A DNA stretch of 64,000 nucleotides from Plasmodiophora brassicae. Taxonomy: Eukaryota. Made by a program: the position numbers and the translations under genes. The notes under the pieces are model-generated. The model made no database searches, was not told the DNA's origin, and saw nothing but the letters and a program-made list of their open reading frames with translations. The stretch's first letter is position 1; each line of letters begins with the position of its first letter. Of the stretch, positions 38,992-61,538 are shown one piece after another. Location: NCBI GenBank assembly GCA_036867785.1, contig CP145414.1, forward strand, positions 682,001-746,000, in the 5' to 3' direction.

Positions 38992-39362
38992 GAGCAGCGG
39001 AAGAATCGGTCAGGGCGGCCTCAGGAGCGAACGCTTGGGGGGAATAAATTCAACACCAATCTCAGAAACCGTGGTCGTTGATGTTTGCTCCATCTAGGCG
39101 ATGACCAGGCATGACAGACACGAGAACAGAACCTCATACGCTCCCAAACTGCTTCGAACGCGATACAGAGAGCGTGGCGCTAGGGCCACTGTGCGGACAC
39201 TGCGCACGCGGATCGGGATTCCTGCAATACTAGCGCATCCGTCATATATACAGCCGCCCAGTGCAAACCACGGTTCAAATCGGTTCCGGCGGAACCGGTT
39301 TGGGCGGACCTCGAACTGAACTAAACCAAACCAAATTGATTGGGTCCACCTGAACCGCTCAG

Positions 39363-39542
39363 TGATTCAAGCAGTTCGAAGCGCTTAGGAAAGTGAAAGT
39401 CCCCAGTGTATCTAACGTGGGGGAAGCCGACGTCCCCATGACGTCGCACACACAGTGGCACGGTCGCCACTGTGCACCAGTTGCGTCACGTCGTCGTGAC
39501 TCATGGGTCGGCCACTGTCGCTAGCCTTCCCATTATGAATCA
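39363..39542 (-). repeat. 3' LTR (180 bp)
   Basis: TGATTCA...TGAATCA (7-bp terminal inverted repeat); base-for-base identical to 44309-44488 on manual comparison. Confidence 0.97.
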
Positions 39543-39548
39543 GCCGCC

Positions 39549-42500
39549 CTAAGGCGCCAGCGACAGGTCCACCCGACCCATCCCGGCCGCCCTCTTCATG
39601 ACCTCCACAGGTTCACGAGTGGTCGGCTTGGTGAGCGCGTCCGCCGGATTGTTCTTTGACGCCACGCGCTCGAACCGGAGCAGTCCCTCCTGGACGCACT
39701 CTCGCACATAGTGCCATTTCACCCGAATGTGCTTGTTCCGGTCCGTGACCCCGAGCGTCTTCACCATCTGCTCGGCAGCCGTGTTGTCCTCCAGCACAAT
39801 CGACGGGTCCGTCAGAGTGAACCCGATGTCGGTGAGGAGCATCCGGACCCACACTACTTCACGCGCCAGCTCGCTGGCCGCCACGTACTCCGCGTGCGCT
39901 GAGGAGGTCGCCACCAGGCTTTGCTGCTTCGATCGCCAGCTCACAGCTGCGTCCATCAGCGTGACGATGAATCCCGTGACCGACTTGGATGTGTCCGGGT
40001 CCATCGCAAAGTCCGAGTCGACCGCCGCCCGGGGCTCCGACTCCTTCACGTTGTCTTTGTTCAGTGCCATCGGGTCGAATTCAGTCGCCGGTGTCTTGCT
40101 CTTCGCGTAGATGATGCCGACATCCGTGTTGTTCTGGACATATCGCAGCACGTGGAGCATCGCCTCGAAATGCTCCCGACCCGGGTTGTTCAGGTGACGC
40201 GACAGCTGCGACACCGCGTGCGTGATTGTCGGCATCGTGCCGATCGACAGATGCGCCAGGCAACCAACGCCCTCGCGGTACCGCTCATGCTGGTGCGGAA
40301 CACCGTCGGTTCGCCGGGGCATAATCTGCCCGACAGGCAGAGCCGTGGCCGGCGCGCGCAAGCGGCGCCCGGCGGCTGCCTCGTCGATGTCGGTCTGGAA
40401 CCGCGCGACCACCTCCTTGGCGTACTGCTGTTGGTCGATCGTGATGCGCGTTGCCTCCTGCTTGATGCGCATCCCCAGGATCCATCTCGCGATGCCGAGG
40501 TCCTTCATCTTGAACTTCTTGCCCAACGCTGCCTTGACGTACTCGATGACGTCGGGATCCGTGCCAAACATCATAAAGTCGTCCACGAACACCCCGAGGA
40601 TCGTGATCTGTCTGCGGCCGTCCTTCGTCGTGAACATAACGAACAGGCACGGGTCGCCGGTCACCCTTGTGAAGCCGATTTCGAACAGAACTGATACGAG
40701 CTTATCGTACCAGAGCTTCGGCGCCTCGACCAGGCCGTACAGCGCCTTCAGGAGCTTCATCACCTTGCCGCGTCCTCCGACCACGAAGTTCTTCGGCTGT
40801 TCACAGTAGATCGGGTACGGCAGGTCTCCATTCAGGAACGCCGTCTTAACGTCCAGCTGGTGGATGACCACGCCCAGCATGGCCGCCAGCGCCACCATGA
40901 TGCGCAACGTCGCATACCGGAGCGTCGGCGAGTACGTCTCCTTCTGGCCCTTGAACTTGTCGCAGCATCCCTTGACGCAGAAGCGGGCCTTGTGGCGCGT
41001 GATCTCCCCGTCCTCGTCGCGCTTCGTCGTGTGCACGAACATTGTTGGCAGCACTTGAGCGTCGGTCGGGCGGTCCACGATCTCATACGTGCCCGCTTCC
41101 TTCAGCGACTGCATCTCCTCGACCTGCGCCGCCAGGTACTTGTCCCGGTCAGGCCCGTTCTCGGCCTCGTACTCAGTGAGGAACGCGTTGCCAGCGTCCT
41201 CCTCCTCCAGGTAGCTGTCCTCGTTCTCGAGCGCCTCGTCCTGGTTGACCTGGTCCTCGTTGTCCGGGTCGTCGTTGGCCTCGTTGTCGTGGTCGACAGC
41301 ATCTGCTGCTGCCGCCTGGTCGACGTTGTCGGCAGCCCCTGCTGCCGCCCTGGCGCTGGCCGCCCTCTGGCGCCGCGCTTCGCCGTCGTAGTCCACGTCG
41401 GCAAACCGAGCGGGCGCTCCTCTGATGCGCGTCGACCGCCTCGGTTCAGGGACGCCTTGAGCAGCAGGTCCTCGATCCCCGCCGCCCTGAGCTGCTTGCT
41501 CATCGCGTCCGTCATGCCGGTCTTCACCGGCACCTGCGAGTTCCCTGGCACGGTCGTCCCCGCCGCCGCCTCGCTGAATGGCGCGGCCATCCTGGCCGCC
41601 GCCCTGTTGTTGACCGACGCGACCTTCTCGATCGCCGTCGTCTTGTCGTGCGACGCGATCGTCCCGACCGCCGTCGTCTTCTTGCCCATGACGATCGTCT
41701 TGACCGCCATCGCCGCCTCCTTGCAGCTGGGCTTGCGCCGTCTCTTGGCGCTTGCGGGTCTCCTCTCCGCGGGAGCCGCTGTCATCCTTGAACGGGAATT
41801 CGTTGGGGAAGAAGACCACGTCCGAAGACTCGATCATCTTGCGGCTGTGCCACAGCAGCAGCCGGTACGCCTTCTTGTCGATGCACACCCCCATGTGGAC
41901 CGCGCGCTCGGCCCTGGCGTCCAGCTTGCACTTCTTTTGCCGCCGGATCCTGACCCACGCCTCGCAACCGAATGGCATCGCCCTCGACAGGTCTGCTTGT
42001 TCCCCCGTCAGTTCCTCGATTGGCGTCGTCCGGTGGCCGTGTCGTTGGAGCGGCACGCGGTTGGCTACCCACGTCTGATGCCGCCCGTTCTCGGTCCAGT
42101 ACTTGCGCGGGACGCCTGACTGGACACGAGCTGCGCGCATCATCTTGACAATCTTGCCACCGAACGTCTCCGCGAGACCGTTCTGGTGCGGGCGGTCCGT
42201 GTCGCTGAACTCCTGTGCGATTCCCCGCTCGCGCAGCAGCTTCGCCAGGCGCGTCGAGGTGAACTCGCCGCCCTGGTCGGCGCGGAACGTGTCGACGCGT
42301 GTGCCGCCCATGACCTCGAGCCGGGTCAGCACGTCCATGACGACTTGCTCCTGGTCACCCTTATTTGCCAGGTTGACCGTGGCACCGACACCAGTCGCGT
42401 GGTCAACGTAGCACGCCATGTACGTCTTTCCGTCATGCGACCTGGTGTCGAACGTCTGCAGGTCCGCCCCGACGATCTGCAGCTTCGAGAGCACCGTCCG

Positions 42501-42823
42501 TGTCCGTCTCCGCGGGATCGCCGTTCGGTTGAGGTTGGCCTCGATGCACACCTTGCACCTGGGCACCTCGTCGCTCGCCAGGTCGGCCTCGTCGATGTTG
42601 AGACCGGTGATTGCCCCGTTCTTGACTGCCTTTCTGATCGTGATCGTGGACAGGTGGCCGCACCTCGCGTGCGCCTCCGCCAATGATATCGTTCTGTCGC
42701 GCTTTACGTCCGCGGGCTTGCGCGTTTCCTTCTTCTCGGCCGGCTCCTCCTTGCTCGGGCTCTTGTTTTCTGGCTGGTTTGGATGATCGTGATCGGGGGC
42801 GGCCAGCGCCACCCCCGCTACTC
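39549..42823 (-). CDS. pol: Copia Pol ORF2: integrase - reverse transcriptase - RNase H (no own ATG; -1 frame relative to ORF1)
   Basis: HARCGH..CKVC (HHCC), VGAD..FRADQGGEF..QNGLAE (DDE), KLDARA, HKARFCVKG, HQLDVKTAFLNG, LLKALYGL, GVFVDD, DSDFA..AEYVAA..EDN..ADALTK. Confidence 0.95.
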
Positions 42824-42830
42824 GAAATCC
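42794..42830 (-). promoter_or_regulatory. Putative -1 programmed ribosomal frameshift signal
   Basis: G_GAU_UUC in the ORF1 frame (42830-42824), 6-nt spacer GAGUAG, then hairpin CGGGGGUGGC-GCUG-GCCGCCCCCG (42817-42794). A -1 slip gives ...QDF-RVAGVALAAPD in the ORF2 frame. Confidence 0.85.
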
Positions 42831-44287
42831 TGGACCTTGTGCAGATCCAGGTAGTACAGGCCCTTGCGGACCGTACTGGTCACGATCGTCCTTCCGGCCC
42901 CGTCCAGGAGCCGGGCTGAGCGCGTCTGCTCATGGTGCTCCGCGCCCGTCTTGCCGTCCTTGCCGAGCTGCAGGAGTGCCGAACGCACCGCGAAGATGTT
43001 CGCGGATGCATCTGGCGCGTACGCGACGTTTGTCAGCGTGATCGACTTGCCGTTAGCCAGCTTGAGGCGGACGTTGCCCCTGGCATGGACCTTGATTCGC
43101 TGCGGGCCGATGCCGCCGATCGTCGGCCGGTCCTTGTCGGCGATGAAGTCCAGCTCCTCGAAGTGCGCCTTGTGGGTGGACACGTGGCCGCACGTCGCCG
43201 CGTTGTCGACGATGAAGTCGCGGATGCCCTTCCGCGGCGCGTCCTCGACGCCCGCCAGGCTCGTCAGGAGCGCGATCGACGCCGAACCGCCTTCCTCTTT
43301 GCCCCCCTTCCGCTTGCCGTTCCTGGCCTTGCCGCGCTCGGCGTTGCCGGTCTTCTTGCGGCTACGGCAGTCGGCCGCCCTGTGTCCAGCCTTTCCACAG
43401 TTGAAGCACTTGCCGGAGAACCCCGTCGTCGTCATGGCCGCCGAGGAGCCGCTGTCGTCGTCGCCGCGCTCTATCGCTCCCCGCTTGTACTGAGCGAGCA
43501 CTTCTGCGCGGACCTTGCTTTGCGTCAGCTCTCCGATGGGACCGCGCAGCATCGCGTTGACTAAGTCCTTGTACTCGGTGTATGGCAGCGAGATAAGGAC
43601 CTTCGTCGCCATGTCCGACTCAGTCTTCGTCCGATTCGGATCCGCCCGGGCCAGGTTGATGCCCAGGTCGCGCATCGCCGTCAGGTGCGCCTTGGTCTCC
43701 GTGAGGTCGGCGCCCGCCTTAAGCTTTGTTGTTGACAGAAGAATGTCGAACATCGCCAGGTCCGTGCCCGTTTGGCCGGAATACTCCGTCTGGATGGCGC
43801 TCCACGCCAGGTCCGGACGGTCGTCGGGTATGTCGAGTATCAAGGGAAGTTCGTCTTCATGCACGTTCTTCTTGATAGCGTACATTGCGTGGAGCCTCTC
43901 TTGCTCCGACGCCGGCTCTTCGTTGTGCCCGCGCGTCGCGGGCTCCACGGCCTTTTGCAGGCCCGACTTCTTGAGCATCGTCGTCATCGACGACGCCCAG
44001 ACCAGGTAATTGTCCTTGCCCTTCAGCTGGACGGAGATCTTGATGCCGGACTCCTTCAGGCCCGTCAGCCTTTCCTTCTGCGCAGCTTCCAGCCGCGCCA
44101 GACGATCCTTGAGCGCCGCGTTCTCGCGCTGGCCGGTCCCGCTCCCGGCCGCCGCTGCTTGCAGACGTTCAACCTCCGCCTCCAGCCGATCCTGCTGCCG
44201 CTGGGCCTCGGACAGCGCAGCGCTTATCTGGGCGATCACGGCCTCTGCTTGGGCCAGGTCGGCTGGGATGCTTGGGATCGTCGCCAT
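42818..44287 (-). CDS. gag: Copia ORF1: Gag (coiled coil, capsid, CCHC knuckle) fused to aspartic protease
   Basis: LKGKDNYLVW, CFNCGKAGHRAADC, FIVDNAATCGHV, LTNVAYAPDASANIFAV, GLYYLD, then TAG at 42818-42820. Confidence 0.93.
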   Translation of the reverse strand: MATIPSIPADLAQAEAVIAQISAALSEAQRQQDRLEAEVERLQAAAAGSGTGQRENAALKDRLARLEAAQKERLTGLKESGIKISVQLKGKDNYLVWASSMTTMLKKSGLQKAVEPATRGHNEEPASEQERLHAMYAIKKNVHEDELPLILDIPDDRPDLAWSAIQTEYSGQTGTDLAMFDILLSTTKLKAGADLTETKAHLTAMRDLGINLARADPNRTKTESDMATKVLISLPYTEYKDLVNAMLRGPIGELTQSKVRAEVLAQYKRGAIERGDDDSGSSAAMTTTGFSGKCFNCGKAGHRAADCRSRKKTGNAERGKARNGKRKGGKEEGGSASIALLTSLAGVEDAPRKGIRDFIVDNAATCGHVSTHKAHFEELDFIADKDRPTIGGIGPQRIKVHARGNVRLKLANGKSITLTNVAYAPDASANIFAVRSALLQLGKDGKTGAEHHEQTRSARLLDGAGRTIVTSTVRKGLYYLDLHKVQDFE

Positions 44288-44290
44288 CAG

Positions 44291-44308
44291 AGAGTGGGAC
44301 TCTTAATC
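44291..44308 (-). promoter_or_regulatory. Primer-binding site complementary to the anticodon arm of tRNA-Lys(CUU)
   Basis: The plus strand reads AGAG-TGGGACTCTTAATC directly abutting the 5' LTR. Eukaryotic tRNA-Lys(CUU) reads AGAGCATGGGACTCTTAATC at about nt 21-40. No TGG-type PBS is present. Confidence 0.8.
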
Positions 44309-44488
44309 TGATTCAAGCAGTTCGAAGCGCTTAGGAAAGTGAAAGTCCCCAGTGTATCTAACGTGGGGGAAGCCGACGTCCCCATGACGTCGCACACACA
44401 GTGGCACGGTCGCCACTGTGCACCAGTTGCGTCACGTCGTCGTGACTCATGGGTCGGCCACTGTCGCTAGCCTTCCCATTATGAATCA
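44309..44488 (-). repeat. 5' LTR (180 bp)
   Basis: Identical to 39363-39542. Confidence 0.97.
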
Positions 44489-44727
44489 AGTTTCGGTTTG
44501 GTTCACGGTTTCTGGTTCGAAACCAAACCGCGCTGTCCCCCACAGTGTCTGCGGCAGCCAGGTTAGGGCACTGGCACTGCCCGCGCGCTCTAAAATACGG
44601 CAGGCGGATTGCGGAGTGCCGTGCGCAATGCCGTGGCGGCAGGCGGTCGTCGGTCCGACCATTCGCGTACTGCAGTCCGTCCGTCAGTTGCAAGTCGTTC
44701 GTCGTCAGGTCCCAGTCATCGCCCAAC

Positions 44728-45039
44728 ATGCCCGCCGAGAAGAAGACAGGCAAGGTCAAGTTCTTCAACAACACCAAGGGCTTCGGCTTCATCACGCCTG
44801 ACGACGGCACCGAGGACCTCTTCGTGCACCAGACGTCCGTCCACGCCAAGGGCTACCGCTCGCTCGCCGACGGCGAGACCGTCGAGTTCGACGTCGAGGT
44901 CGGCGACGATGGCCGCACCAAGGCCATGAACGTGACGGGACCCGACGGCTCATATGTCCAAGGCCAGCCCCGCGAGCAGCGCCAGGAGCGCTCGTACGGC
45001 GGCGGCTACGGCCAGCAGAGCGGCGGCGACCGCTGGTAA
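44728..45039 (+). CDS. Cold-shock domain protein with short Gly/Arg-rich tail
   Basis: GKVKFFNNTKGFGFITPDDG (RNP1), DLFVHQTSV (RNP2), GYRSLADGETVEF, KAMNVTGPDG. Confidence 0.95.
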   Translation: MPAEKKTGKVKFFNNTKGFGFITPDDGTEDLFVHQTSVHAKGYRSLADGETVEFDVEVGDDGRTKAMNVTGPDGSYVQGQPREQRQERSYGGGYGQQSGGDRW

Positions 45040-56954: not shown

Positions 56955-59900
56955 TTAGGGGGCAGTCAGTTGGCTGATCTCGATCCGGCCCTCAGCAGAT
57001 CGCGCGAGGAGCACCATCAGCAGACGTCCCAGGTCGTTGCTGCCGACGGCCTGGCAGTAAGCCCGTTCAGCAATCGCAAGTATCAACGGCCTGCCCGCGT
57101 CGTCCAGTACCTGATCGAACTGTCGAACGGTGACGAATCCGGCATTGTCCTGATCGGCGATGGATAACTGTCGACGAAGGGCGTCGAGTTCGTCGGGAAG
57201 CGCTTCCCGTAATGCCATAGACAGCATCGACGCACGCCAGTCGCCGATGTCGGCGGCGACCCAGTCGGAGACGACGAGGCGGTTCTCCTCGGAGGCAACG
57301 TTGTTGGCGTCTGCGAAGCGGTCCAGCGCCGCCTCCAGTGAGTCGGCATTCGACAGGACTTCGGCCAGTTGCAGAGCCGGTCCGAATCGAGTCGCCCCCC
57401 TCGGCATCGTCCCTGCGAATGCGCTCTCCACTCGGTCGCGCACGTCGTCGTAAAGTGTGACGCTCCTGTCAACGACGATGTCGACGCCGTCGACGACCTT
57501 CATTGGATGATACAGGACGGATTCGCTCTAGCAGGTCGGGGAATCATTACGATGGGCCAGCGTCCGGTCGTACAACGAAGCGAAATACCTCGATCGTCTG
57601 ACGAATGAGGTGCAAGGCTGGGTCGATGCAGGCGCGTTCCTTCAACTGCCGATCTGCAGCGATGCTGCGAAGGGTGTCCTGCAGCGCCGTCAGCGAGAGC
57701 GTACCCCGATTCGTGATGGGCACGGGCGGTACGATGAGTTGGTTGGCGTGATTGCACAGGTCGCGAAGCTGAACCTCTCCACGGGCCGCCAGGCGCCTGC
57801 ACCGATTACGGGTCACGATCCGCTCCTGACGTACCTGCCCGATGGTTGCGTGTTCAGAGTCGGCCCGCGACACACACTCAGAAACGAATGAAGGCGTTCA
57901 CCAGTGGTGTCTCCACGATGTCGTCCTTGCCGGTGGCGAGGTCGATGCAGAGGCGGCAGGCTCGCGACAGCGCGTCCAACGCACGTGCACTGGTGTACCG
58001 GCCGGTGTTGTCGATAACGCTGCTGCCGGTGCTGCTGTCGGGGGTGGTCGCGGGCGCCAGCGTCGCAGCAGGTTTCGCTGCTGCTGGCGCTGCTGGTCCA
58101 CCGCCGCCAGCAGCAGCACCTTTCTTCACGGGCGTCGTCTCCACAGCCGCAGGCACTGGTCATCCACGTGTTAGTGGGGCGGCCAAGCGAACGGATCCTG
58201 GCGCGCGCGTACCTTCACCGTTGTTGCCATCGATACGTAACGGCGTCGGTGTAGTGGGAGGTGGAGGGCGCCCGCCTTTGCACCGGTCCAGGTCGTCGAA
58301 GAACAGGATCGCCGACTGGTGTCGCCCAGCTTCCGCTTGCAGCAGGGACAGGAACCGCTCCAGGCACAGGTCCGCTTGCCGCTCGAACCACGGGTCCTGG
58401 AGGAACGTTCACCACGAGGGCCAGCACGACAGAACGTGGTGGGGGACCTTGAGGATCCGGTCGATAGCGTCGCTGGTCTCCCTGTTCTTCGCGTCGAGAA
58501 TGGCGACAAGGCCAGCGGCCAGCTCGCGCGCGCGTTCATGCAGCTGAGCATCGCTGGTCAACGCAGGTCGGCAATGGCATACCCCCATCGATGCACGTGT
58601 ACCTCGTCTTTGATGACGTCCTCGACTCGCATGACGCGCGGGATGGCGTTGAATTCCCCGACGAACTTGTCGATCAGCGCCTGGCGGGGGTCGTCGCGCG
58701 TCACAAACGACCCGAACTTGGCGATCGTGTCCGAGAAGAACTCAACGGCCGGATGCCGGCTCCTGCCCACGATCGTTACCAATCGTAGCGATCGCCGTCC
58801 AGGCACGACCCTACAGGCGGTCGTTGCGGAACACGTTCTGGACCTGTGCCACGTAGGCCGTCTCGATCGACATCCATTGCCGGTAGAGACGGTCGACCAG
58901 GTCGCGGTCCAGAAAGTCAGCGGCGACATCTGCTGGCTCCTTCATAGCGCCGTCCTGAGCGGCCGCTACCGGAGCCGGCCCCACATCCGCACCGACGTCC
59001 TTCTTCTTGCCCTTGACGACCCGCTCGACCACCGCAATCGCGTCCGATATCACAGACGCCGGCTCCCCAGCACCGTTCACCGTATGTAGGACCTACATCG
59101 GGTACGTCAGCAGCAGGGACACAAAGGCAATGGACCAAGGACAATGGCGCGCCTGGAAAAGGTTCAGGAAGGCGGACAGGGGCGGGTACTTGCGGCTCCA
59201 TGCGAACAGCTCCTCGGGCACCTGCTCGTTGACGATGATGGCGTCCCGGCCAGGCAGGTCGACGAGGCGCTCCTTGACGACCTGGTCGAACGGCGGGTCG
59301 GCACCGTCCAGCCAGTACGTATCGCCCGTCATCGGATCGATACGTCGCCCCAGCGCGCGACGCTCCACCGCCGAATCGTCCAGGTCGACGTGCAGCACGA
59401 CCGCCATCTTCGAGCACCCGAACGGCGGCCGCTCGACGGCCGGGACGCCATCCGGGTACGGCACGATGTCGGACGCGCGATCCCGACCGGCGTTCCCGTT
59501 GGCGTCTGGCGCTGGGCCCGGGATCGTAAACCCAGACAGCGCCCGCTCCAGCAGGGCGGCCTGCGTCACCGACGTGGGGAACCCGTCGACGACAACGCCA
59601 GCGGCCTGCTGGCCGCACGTGACGATTGCATTGCAGACCAGGTTGACGAACGCGTTGTCGTCCGAGACGGGCCCCGTTGCCAGCGCGTCAACGTCGATAA
59701 CGACGTAGGACAGGGACCTGGCGATCGCGTTCGCGACCGTCGTCTTCCCTGAGAAGCGCTTCCCGATGACAAAGACAAGGTCGGCGTTCGTTGCGATTGC
59801 CGGCGCCAGCGGTGGCTGAACGGTGGCGCGACCCACGACATCGTGGACGGCGCGTCCCAGGGCGCTCGCATCGGTTTCCGACTCCAGAAGGCCATCGGCC

Positions 59901-61417
59901 CACCAGGGGGCGGATCGCGCCAGGAACATCTTCATCTGGCGGCGATCGAGGCGCGCCTGCACCTCCTCAGGCATCGTGACCGCCGACACGTAATCGTCGC
60001 GGACGCTCATCACGAACTTGTACTGGACGCTGTCGACCCTACCTTCGACGTGGGCGCCGGGTGCGACCGCGTCCTGCCAGCGGAACACGTCCTTGCACGC
60101 GTCCCACTCGTCGTCGGGCATGTCCCGTCGCGCCAGGGACCGGTAGGTCGACCGTCTGACGGCCAGCGCCACCAGCCCGTTCACCATCCGACCGCACCAC
60201 CGCCTGTTATGTCGTGATACGCGACGTCTGGCGGCCGCCCTGCAATCGACGATACGCTGCTGGTCGTCGCGAAGGCGATCCTCGTACAGCATCTTCTCCA
60301 GCGCGAAATGCTGACGATCGCGACGAAGGGCGACGTCGGCGCTGACGGCCGCGATCCGCTGCTTCTCCTGCTCGTAGTAGGACCGGCGACGCTCAGCGAT
60401 CGTCTCGACCTTGGCGACCTGCAGCATCTGCTGCTGGACGTCGCGTTCGCTGTTCGACCCGATCGTCGTCAGCGCCCTGGCCACGTCGTTGCCCTCCTGG
60501 GCCCGCAGGCGAGCCATGTCCTGGAACCGGTCGCGAAGCACCTTGTCGAGGCGTTTCCGTCGCGACTGATCGTCACGCTCCTGGGCGTCCGCTCGCTGGC
60601 GAATCAGTTCCAGCAGGTTGTCGTCGTTGATGTCGGCAGCGCGCGCCTTCTTCCCCAGCAACGACTCGTCGAAGGCGGCCAGGTCGCGACTGACGCCGGC
60701 CTGGGCGGCGGTGACGCGTTGCTGGCGCTGACGAAGGCGTCGCACGGCGACGCCTTGTTGTGCTTGCTCGTCCTGCGCGGCCATCTCGCCGTGCTTCGCC
60801 TCGCAATGGTCCAGGTGTCGCCTGGTGCACTCGTCGGCGTAGTCCCGTTGGCGAATCCGCTCGTCAAGCTCGGCCAGACGCTCGAGACGGAACCGCTTGT
60901 GTCGGTCGGCGACCTGCTGTGGACGTGCCCGCCCTGGGCTGTGCTGCCCAGCGGCCGCCTTGGCTCGCAGCGTCTGCAGGACGCCCGGCGACGTCGTCCA
61001 CCTCAGCATCTCGGTCAGGTGGCGCCGCTCGAACGCTGCCATGCGCTCGTTGCGTCGATCGTGGGCGGGGGCGGTCTGCTGGGCGACCTGCGATCGCTCC
61101 CAGTGCACCTTAACGGCGTGCAGCAGGTGGAGCGCGGCGCCCGGCTTCCCGGCGATCACGTCCTGGATCGTGTTCGGCGTGCAGACCACGCCCAGGTTGA
61201 CGAACCCGTCGTGCGCTCGCAACCAGTTCCGCTGGATCGCCTCCGGATGCTCCGGCCTCTGCTTGCCGGCGCCCGCGTCCCCCAGCGGGATCACGCCCAG
61301 GCGCTCCAGCAACCGCACGAACAGGCGCCCGTCGCCTGCCAGCGCCTCCAGCGGCCGGTCGTCCGGCATCGCCAGCCCGACATCGTCGACGATCCATGAC
61401 CGCACCAGCTGCGACAT
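56955..61417 (-). CDS. SPEF2: Sperm flagellar protein 2 (SPEF2/CPC1)-like axonemal central-pair protein; multi-exon
   Basis: N-terminal CH-like domain (GDGRLFVRLL..QRNW..DVIAGKPGAALHLL), coiled coil, adenylate-kinase-like region (IGKRFSGKTT, VVDGFPTSVTQAALLERALSG, RRALGRRIDPMTGDTY), FNAIP..MR....KDEVH, IGDWR. Confidence 0.82.
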
Positions 61418-61538
61418 CACTCAGTGACGATCGTCGCGGGCCTACCCGTCAGCGCCCGATGATTGCAGAAGATTCGCCCGGTGCCCATCGTGGGGTACGC
61501 CCGGGTGGTCCAGCACCACACTCACTCAACGGGCGACG

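Follow-up and report, generated by a model that had tools for sequence, protein, structure and literature searches.

To our knowledge, all retroelements require far more Gag than Pol. An excess of Gag is likewise required in the Ty1/Copia superfamily, for which the introduction of PMC5580714 gives several strategies: Ty1 uses a +1 frameshift, Tca2 a stop codon, and Ty5 a single ORF combined with degradation, and the Gag:Pol ratio of copia, BARE1, and EVD is set by splicing. Drosophila 1731 is also described as frameshifting, and +1 arrangements are described for the Sireviruses. Among Ty3/Gypsy and BEL elements, -1 heptamer frameshifts were found in 28/51 animal elements of a 2003 survey (as summarized in PMC5009743). 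Fungal Gypsy elements are also described with a -1 arrangement, and their protease is located in the pol ORF. These elements belong to other superfamilies, and in the Gypsy cases the shift is placed at the gag/pol border with the protease downstream of it, unlike in the element described below. A protease within the Gag frame is typical of the alpharetroviruses (avian sarcoma/leukosis virus), in which each Gag product carries the protease and one -1 shift at the end of the protease gives rise to the Pol fusion.

Slip sites of the G_GAU_UUY type are described in RNA viruses. The -1 site of pea enation mosaic virus RNA2, an umbravirus, reads G_GAU_UUU_UGG_UAG, and the conversion of its stop codon into a sense codon strongly reduces frameshifting, according to PMC5009743. 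G_GAU_UUY is the usual site in insect-specific flaviviruses, and G_GAU_UUU combined with an adjacent stem-loop was active in reporter assays (as given in PMC4342338). A motif of this type is also named in a Fusarium mycovirus.

The locus analyzed here is a Ty1/Copia-type element of 5,126 bp on the minus strand (39363-44488), and it is the sole copy in the window, i.e., the whole 64-kb stretch of DNA that was analyzed (Table 1). The element is bounded by direct LTRs with TG...CA ends, its domains follow the order protease, integrase, reverse transcriptase (of the RVT_2 type), and RNase H, and it encodes a Copia-type Gag with a CCHC knuckle, PF14223 being matched in its relatives. The two LTRs are identical at 180/180 positions. 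With identical LTRs and two intact ORFs, the element appears to be young; judged from its sequence, it is a recently inserted and probably active Ty1/Copia-type LTR retrotransposon. A short purine-rich tract lies just before the 3' LTR and overlaps the stop codon of ORF2. The 21-nt leader contains a short inverted repeat. It appears to match the anticodon-arm region of a lysine tRNA by complementarity, and not the 3' end of a tRNA, which would mean half-tRNA priming of the hemivirus kind. ARAGORN identified no tRNA in the window, and no Rfam family was matched within 39000-45000.

Table 1. Features of the Ty1/Copia-type element (positions refer to the 64-kb window).
Feature	Position	Strand	Description
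5' LTR	44309-44488	-	180 nt; TG...CA ends; 7-nt terminal inverted repeats; direct repeat of 39363-39542
Leader, candidate primer-binding site	44288-44308	-	21 nt between LTR and ORF1 ATG; putative function
ORF1 (Gag, CCHC knuckle, protease)	42818-44287	-	489 aa, 52.7 kDa, TAG stop; domains by Pfam
Retrotran_gag_2 (ORF1)	43484-43978	-	Pfam, 24.8 bits, under the cut-off of 27
zf-CCHC (ORF1)	43364-43414	-	Pfam, 27.2 bits, over the cut-off
Pol_BBD (ORF1)	42980-43216	-	Pfam, Pol beta-barrel (protease), over the cut-off
Slippery heptamer G_GAU_UUC	42824-42830	-	in ORF1 phase
Spacer GAGUAG	42818-42823	-	6 nt; one codon (GAG) and the ORF1 stop (UAG)
Hairpin, putative stimulator	42794-42817	-	predicted fold; arms 42817-42808 and 42803-42794; loop 42807-42804
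ORF2 (IN, RT, RNase H region)	39549-42830	-	-1 frame; 1,091 aa after slip
rve (ORF2)	42189-42443	-	follows the H-H/C-C finger
SH3_retrovirus (ORF2)	41790-42008	-	
RVT_2 (ORF2)	40395-41090	-	Pfam, E 3.6e-54
3' LTR	39363-39542	-	180 nt; direct repeat of 44309-44488

The frame of ORF1 is open from 44302 to 42818, with the ATG at 44287, and the protein ends in QDFE directly before the TAG at 42820-42818. Its matches in the protein atlas were generic Copia Gag-PR clusters. The frame of ORF2 is open from 42929 to 39549, and its codons start one base 5' of those of ORF1, which places it in the -1 frame. It carries the H-H/C-C finger of the integrase and terminates in a Copia-style RNase H tail. No methionine codon was present in this frame upstream of the slip site, and the first one thereafter corresponds to residue 136, downstream of the integrase zinc finger; a complete integrase therefore requires fusion to ORF1. 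The gene call of ORF2 in the assembly itself (P0153, 956 aa) begins at this first methionine and drops the zinc finger. Reading of the minus strand thus bore out what the initial annotation had claimed, namely a TAG stop of ORF1 at 42818-42820 and an ORF2 in the -1 frame lacking its own ATG, and the Pfam matches agree with its placement of the protease in the Gag frame and of the integrase at the opening of the second frame. The heptamer, the 6-nt spacer, and the 10-bp hairpin that it had reported at the junction were all recovered as well.

The protease active site (ORF1 residues 361-365, ~43200-43216 on the minus strand) reads D-N-A-A-T in place of the usual D-S/T-G-A; in the relatives, the position after the aspartate is N, S, G, T, or H, and the next one is mostly A. 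A low-complexity stretch rich in Gly, Asp, Arg, and Gln separates the integrase from the reverse transcriptase (ORF2 residues ~390-560, ~41250-41760 on the minus strand). The GC-rich coding sequence also gives rise to long open frames on the opposite strand, such as 40695-42119 on the plus strand (474 aa).

At the 3' end of ORF1, an in-phase heptamer is followed by a spacer whose 6 nt fall within the range of about 5-9 nt for frameshift cassettes, then by a stable predicted structure, and the downstream ORF overlaps in the -1 frame and lacks its own start. The heptamer lies outside the strict X_XXY_YYZ rule and is a documented functional variant of it; re-pairing in the P site would be imperfect because GGA is not a strict XXX triplet. 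GGAUUUY occurs at this one site only in the 5,126-nt element, and its phase is that of ORF1. Both strands of the whole window (128 kb) contain 10 such motifs, from which a simple calculation gives a chance expectation of ~0.003 in-phase GGAUUUY per 112-nt frame overlap. No canonical X_XXY_YYZ site was found in the 112-nt overlap, and among the remaining in-phase sites only C_AAG_GGC, a poor candidate, contained a YYY triplet. The predicted hairpin comprises 10 bp (nine G-C and one G-U) and a GCUG loop; at -24.3 kcal/mol it exceeds every other 30-nt window of the element in stability, the runner-up reaching -19.7. The fold of the 75-nt junction region has a z-score of -4.05, and none of 200 shuffled sequences was as stable. 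The arrangement at the junction exceeds chance. Pseudoknot formation by pairing of the 4-nt loop with a CAGC farther downstream was also considered and rejected on steric grounds.

The element shares with pea enation mosaic virus RNA2 the type of heptamer and the single codon that precedes the stop. Pea enation mosaic virus, on the other hand, is a plant RNA virus that makes its replicase in this way and not a retroelement, and the comparison is limited to slip site and stop, the putative stimulator of the element being a simple adjacent hairpin. The insect-specific flaviviruses, in which the stem-loop belongs to the CHAOV-LAMV clade, have in common with the element the heptamer, a last base that is U or C, and a 3'-adjacent stem-loop; their shift leads into a short overlapping ORF and not to a polymerase fusion, and the products are unrelated to those of the element. 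Relative to the known strategies of Ty1/Copia elements, the shift would be -1 in direction, and the border lies after the protease and not before it. The protease in the Gag frame and the frame change at its 3' end are those of an alpharetrovirus. However, the element differs from an alpharetrovirus in that the integrase precedes the reverse transcriptase, the latter is of the RVT_2 type, the LTRs are 180 nt in length, and neither env nor a third ORF is present. The slip site and the stimulator of alpharetroviruses also differ from those of the element, which resembles an alpharetrovirus in layout but is no retrovirus.

All sampled words of the element were present in 20 sequencing runs from nine studies. 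Four of these runs (X1, X2, X3, and X8), which came from four studies with four organism labels and did not include the run flagged as a possible source, were compared with the element in detail. Each yielded one contig of 4,976 nt over 39543-44488 with no other letters and no gaps, an agreement that establishes the presence of the sequence rather than the uniformity of all copies, as contigs lose rare variants. As the junction has identical letters in these four runs, each from a different study, assembly error is excluded. The 4,976-nt contigs each self-close through one LTR. Collapsed identical LTRs, one-LTR circles, or many copies would all give such contigs, which cannot separate these possibilities.

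The break between the two frames recurs in diverged relatives. A word-index search with ORF1 retrieved two proteins (P0004 and P0005), both with a BLASTP local-alignment identity of 41% (47 and 45%, respectively, when aligned with MAFFT), and both end in QDF and one further residue, as in this element. When 1.84 billion representatives (clustered at 50% identity) were searched with an ORF1 profile, 4,588 matches were obtained at E <= 0.001, including 40 at E <= 1e-30; the best 150 of the 4,588 were examined. The C-terminal motif of the protease was kept in 29 of these best 150 of 4,588, the ORF1 of the element included, and the pairwise identity among the 29 proteins was at most 50%. The C-terminus consisted of QDF followed by zero or one residue in 22/29 (among the best 150 of 4,588), a count based on predicted proteins alone, so that stops and codon choice are inferred and some ends may be the ends of contigs. 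Under the same sampling of the best 150 of 4,588, 18/29 ended in QDF and one residue, and 4/29 in QDF with nothing further. One protein (P0010) ended in QDF and four residues, one (P0028) ended in SDFQ after an insert of 17 aa, and four (P0009, P0040, P0042, and P0046) had other endings. In the remaining one (P0011), there was no break, and QDF ran straight into an ORF2-like linker and the integrase. The three residues ahead of QDF are variable, with a mean column identity of 23% in an alignment of 26 sequences. All ten relatives that were looked up were metagenomic, on contigs of 1.7-15 kb.

P0011 is a metagenomic fragment of 390 aa that reaches the integrase finger, as though a single base had been added to its source sequence at the slip site; a sequencing error in the U run, a natural fused variant, or an RNA-derived sequence could be the cause. 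Its domain order is that expected of the transframe product. The closest relatives of ORF2 (P0154-P0158) had 41-49% identity and 932-1,078 aa, and contained integrase and reverse transcriptase domains without Gag or protease; P0155 begins within the stretch encoded by the hairpin. The matches next in rank were fused polyproteins of just 26-29% identity. The gene-called starts of the ORF2 relatives fall at differing places, and several of these proteins lose the zinc finger.

A metagenome scan recovered DNA of one junction-spanning relative, L001 (1,143 nt, 46% identical across the protease); scans of viral contigs and of contigs from prokaryote genomes with the ORF1 and ORF2 alignments gave no further relatives. 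ORF1 of L001 ends in Q-D-F-R-stop, encoded as G_GAU_UUU, CGU, and UGA, and its ORF2 is likewise in the -1 frame, in which a stop occurs two codons upstream of the heptamer. The frame change in L001 is therefore confined to 16 nt that include the heptamer. A predicted hairpin with a 10-bp stem (nine G-C and a closing A-U) and a 6-nt loop (z = -3.06) begins 5-6 nt after the heptamer, and the stop again falls within the spacer. The arms of the hairpin, a G-run and a C-run, are alike in the element and L001, although the ORF2 residues that they encode differ, a pattern in the two sequences that points to selection on the RNA. Covariation within the stem, calculated from two sequences only, amounted to one double and one single change in 10 pairs, a level that 254/500 shuffles reached. 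The conservation of heptamer and stop in relatives, which the initial annotation had named as a check, was thus found in the DNA of L001, together with a hairpin, and is consistent with the 22/29 protein ends among the best 150 of 4,588. The layout of one codon followed by a stop is common to the element, L001, and 18/29 of the relatives' protein ends (best 150 of 4,588, with putative stops).

A programmed -1 ribosomal frameshift that yields abundant Gag-PR and rare Gag-PR-IN-RT-RH is, in our judgment, the highly probable explanation of this junction. The majority of ribosomes would read ORF1 and terminate at the UAG, producing the 489-aa Gag-PR. A minority would be paused by the 10-bp GC hairpin that starts 6 nt past G_GAU_UUC, whereupon, with P and A sites occupied by GAU and UUC, respectively, they would slip back by one base to GGA_UUU and continue reading in the -1 frame. 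The product of such a slip would be a Gag-PR-IN-RT-RH fusion of 1,579 aa with a computed mass of 173.6 kDa. The ORF1 stop one codon past the heptamer probably belongs to the signal, as is reported for pea enation mosaic virus RNA2, and the cassette appears to be conserved throughout a clade of such elements from uncultured eukaryotes. The slip, its rate, the contribution of the stop, and the ratio of the proteins produced are inferred from the arrangement described above.

Other explanations of the junction have to be weighed against programmed frameshifting. A dead copy, whose single Gag-Pol ORF was split by a 1-bp indel or an assembly error, would agree with the single ORF of most Copia elements (according to PMC5580714) and with the unbroken relative P0011, but the letters were identical in four runs of four studies, the two LTRs are identical, and the break point is the same in 22-24/29 relatives that share at most 50% identity (best 150 of 4,588) and in the DNA of L001. 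Moreover, the ORF2 relatives are all separate proteins, and a search for longer, fused ORF1 relatives found none, which is weak evidence; we regard a dead copy as next to negligible. The check for a 1-bp indel or assembly error proposed in the initial annotation, which had read the junction as a programmed signal and not a mutation, accordingly gave four identical runs with zero gaps, and its reading is supported by this identity, the intact ORFs, the relatives ending in QDF-x-stop, and L001. Stuttering of the polymerase on the U run could also join the frames by adding one base to some transcripts. P0011, which would read as though one extra base were present at the site, and a class of relatives ending in QDFC and a stop, which would imply a run of five U, are compatible with such transcriptional slippage; however, the U run comprises three bases in the window and four in L001, a short tract for slippage, which would also leave the conserved hairpin unexplained. 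Slippage of this kind is thus a remote alternative, if slightly less so than a dead copy.

Removal of 3n+2 nt at the junction by an intron or other RNA processing would likewise join the two frames and make the heptamer and the hairpin incidental. The host is a eukaryote, as indicated by an ORF with a CPC1/SPEF2 domain in the window, and splicing sets the Gag:Pol ratio in other Copia elements, but the splicing known for Copia yields a Gag-only RNA and does not join frames (both according to PMC5580714). QDF is conserved as translated sequence up to the stop, and GU is not conserved at the junction, AAG|GUC being present upstream in the window and absent there in L001. Splicing would also leave unexplained the in-phase heptamer, the layout of one codon and then a stop, and the equal distance of the hairpin in the element and L001, and we consider it highly improbable. 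Only marginally less improbable is an unfused ORF2 product, made through reinitiation past the ORF1 stop, from an internal start, or from a separate transcript. The stop lies just 6 nt past the heptamer, and automatic gene callers place starts in ORF2 (P0153-P0158). In contrast, the first methionine is located 136 codons in, beyond the integrase zinc finger, and the called starts of the relatives are scattered and in several cases cut off the finger. In general retroelement biology, furthermore, Pol without Gag is not packaged into particles, which argues against an unfused ORF2.

Searches of the literature outside Repbase and the 2003 survey turned up -1 arrangements in Gypsy elements and in the animal elements summarized from that survey; none was found in a Copia element, and likewise no Copia shift located downstream of the protease. 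The initial annotation had known of no such Copia case either, with which this search agrees within the same reach; the usual Copia strategies that it had listed match those in the introduction of PMC5580714, and its statement that G_GAU_UUY serves as a slip site in insect-specific flaviviruses is documented in PMC4342338. The arrangement is real, conserved, built from known parts, and probably unreported. We tentatively propose, at a confidence a little short of even, that the element represents a hitherto undescribed clade of Copia-type elements from uncultured eukaryotes, in which the switch from Gag to Pol takes place at the border of protease and integrase by means of a -1 signal of the RNA-virus type. 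If this is true, programmed -1 frameshifting would be described here for the first time in Pseudoviridae, the Gag-PR/Pol layout of avian retroviruses would have been reinvented independently, and the stimulator would include the nearby stop codon as a conserved component. A conserved -1 signal after the protease would add a fourth type of Gag:Pol solution to the Copia superfamily, and would be a case of convergence in layout with avian retroviruses and in signal with plant and insect RNA viruses. The D-N-A site of the protease may indicate a weak enzyme that is needed in amounts equal to Gag. The compact natural cassette of G_GAU_UUY, codon, stop, and hairpin would also be useful for studying the effect of a stop codon on frameshifting. 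Gene callers split such elements and lose the integrase zinc finger, and the clade is thus easily mis-annotated as broken or truncated.

No target-site duplication was found at the LTR flanks, the 5-nt flanks being different. Recombination between copies or rearranged repeat flanks are possible causes, and the missing duplication has no bearing on the superfamily assignment. Repeats similar to GGTTTGGTTT were present in both flanks (44489-44530 and 39320-39362), and coverage of the flank at 44531-44700 was missing in three of the four runs. A contig of 170 nt over 44641-44700 in run X2 had a depth of 9,457, compared with 698 for the element. The element may lie within a high-copy repeat or have undergone recombination inside one. 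Elsewhere in the window, an ORF at 59093-61420 on the minus strand matched domain D5 of CPC1/SPEF2, a ciliary central-pair protein (E 4.7e-09), and the GC content ranged from 48 to 69% across the window, thus indicating that the host probably has a GC-rich genome and is a flagellated eukaryote.
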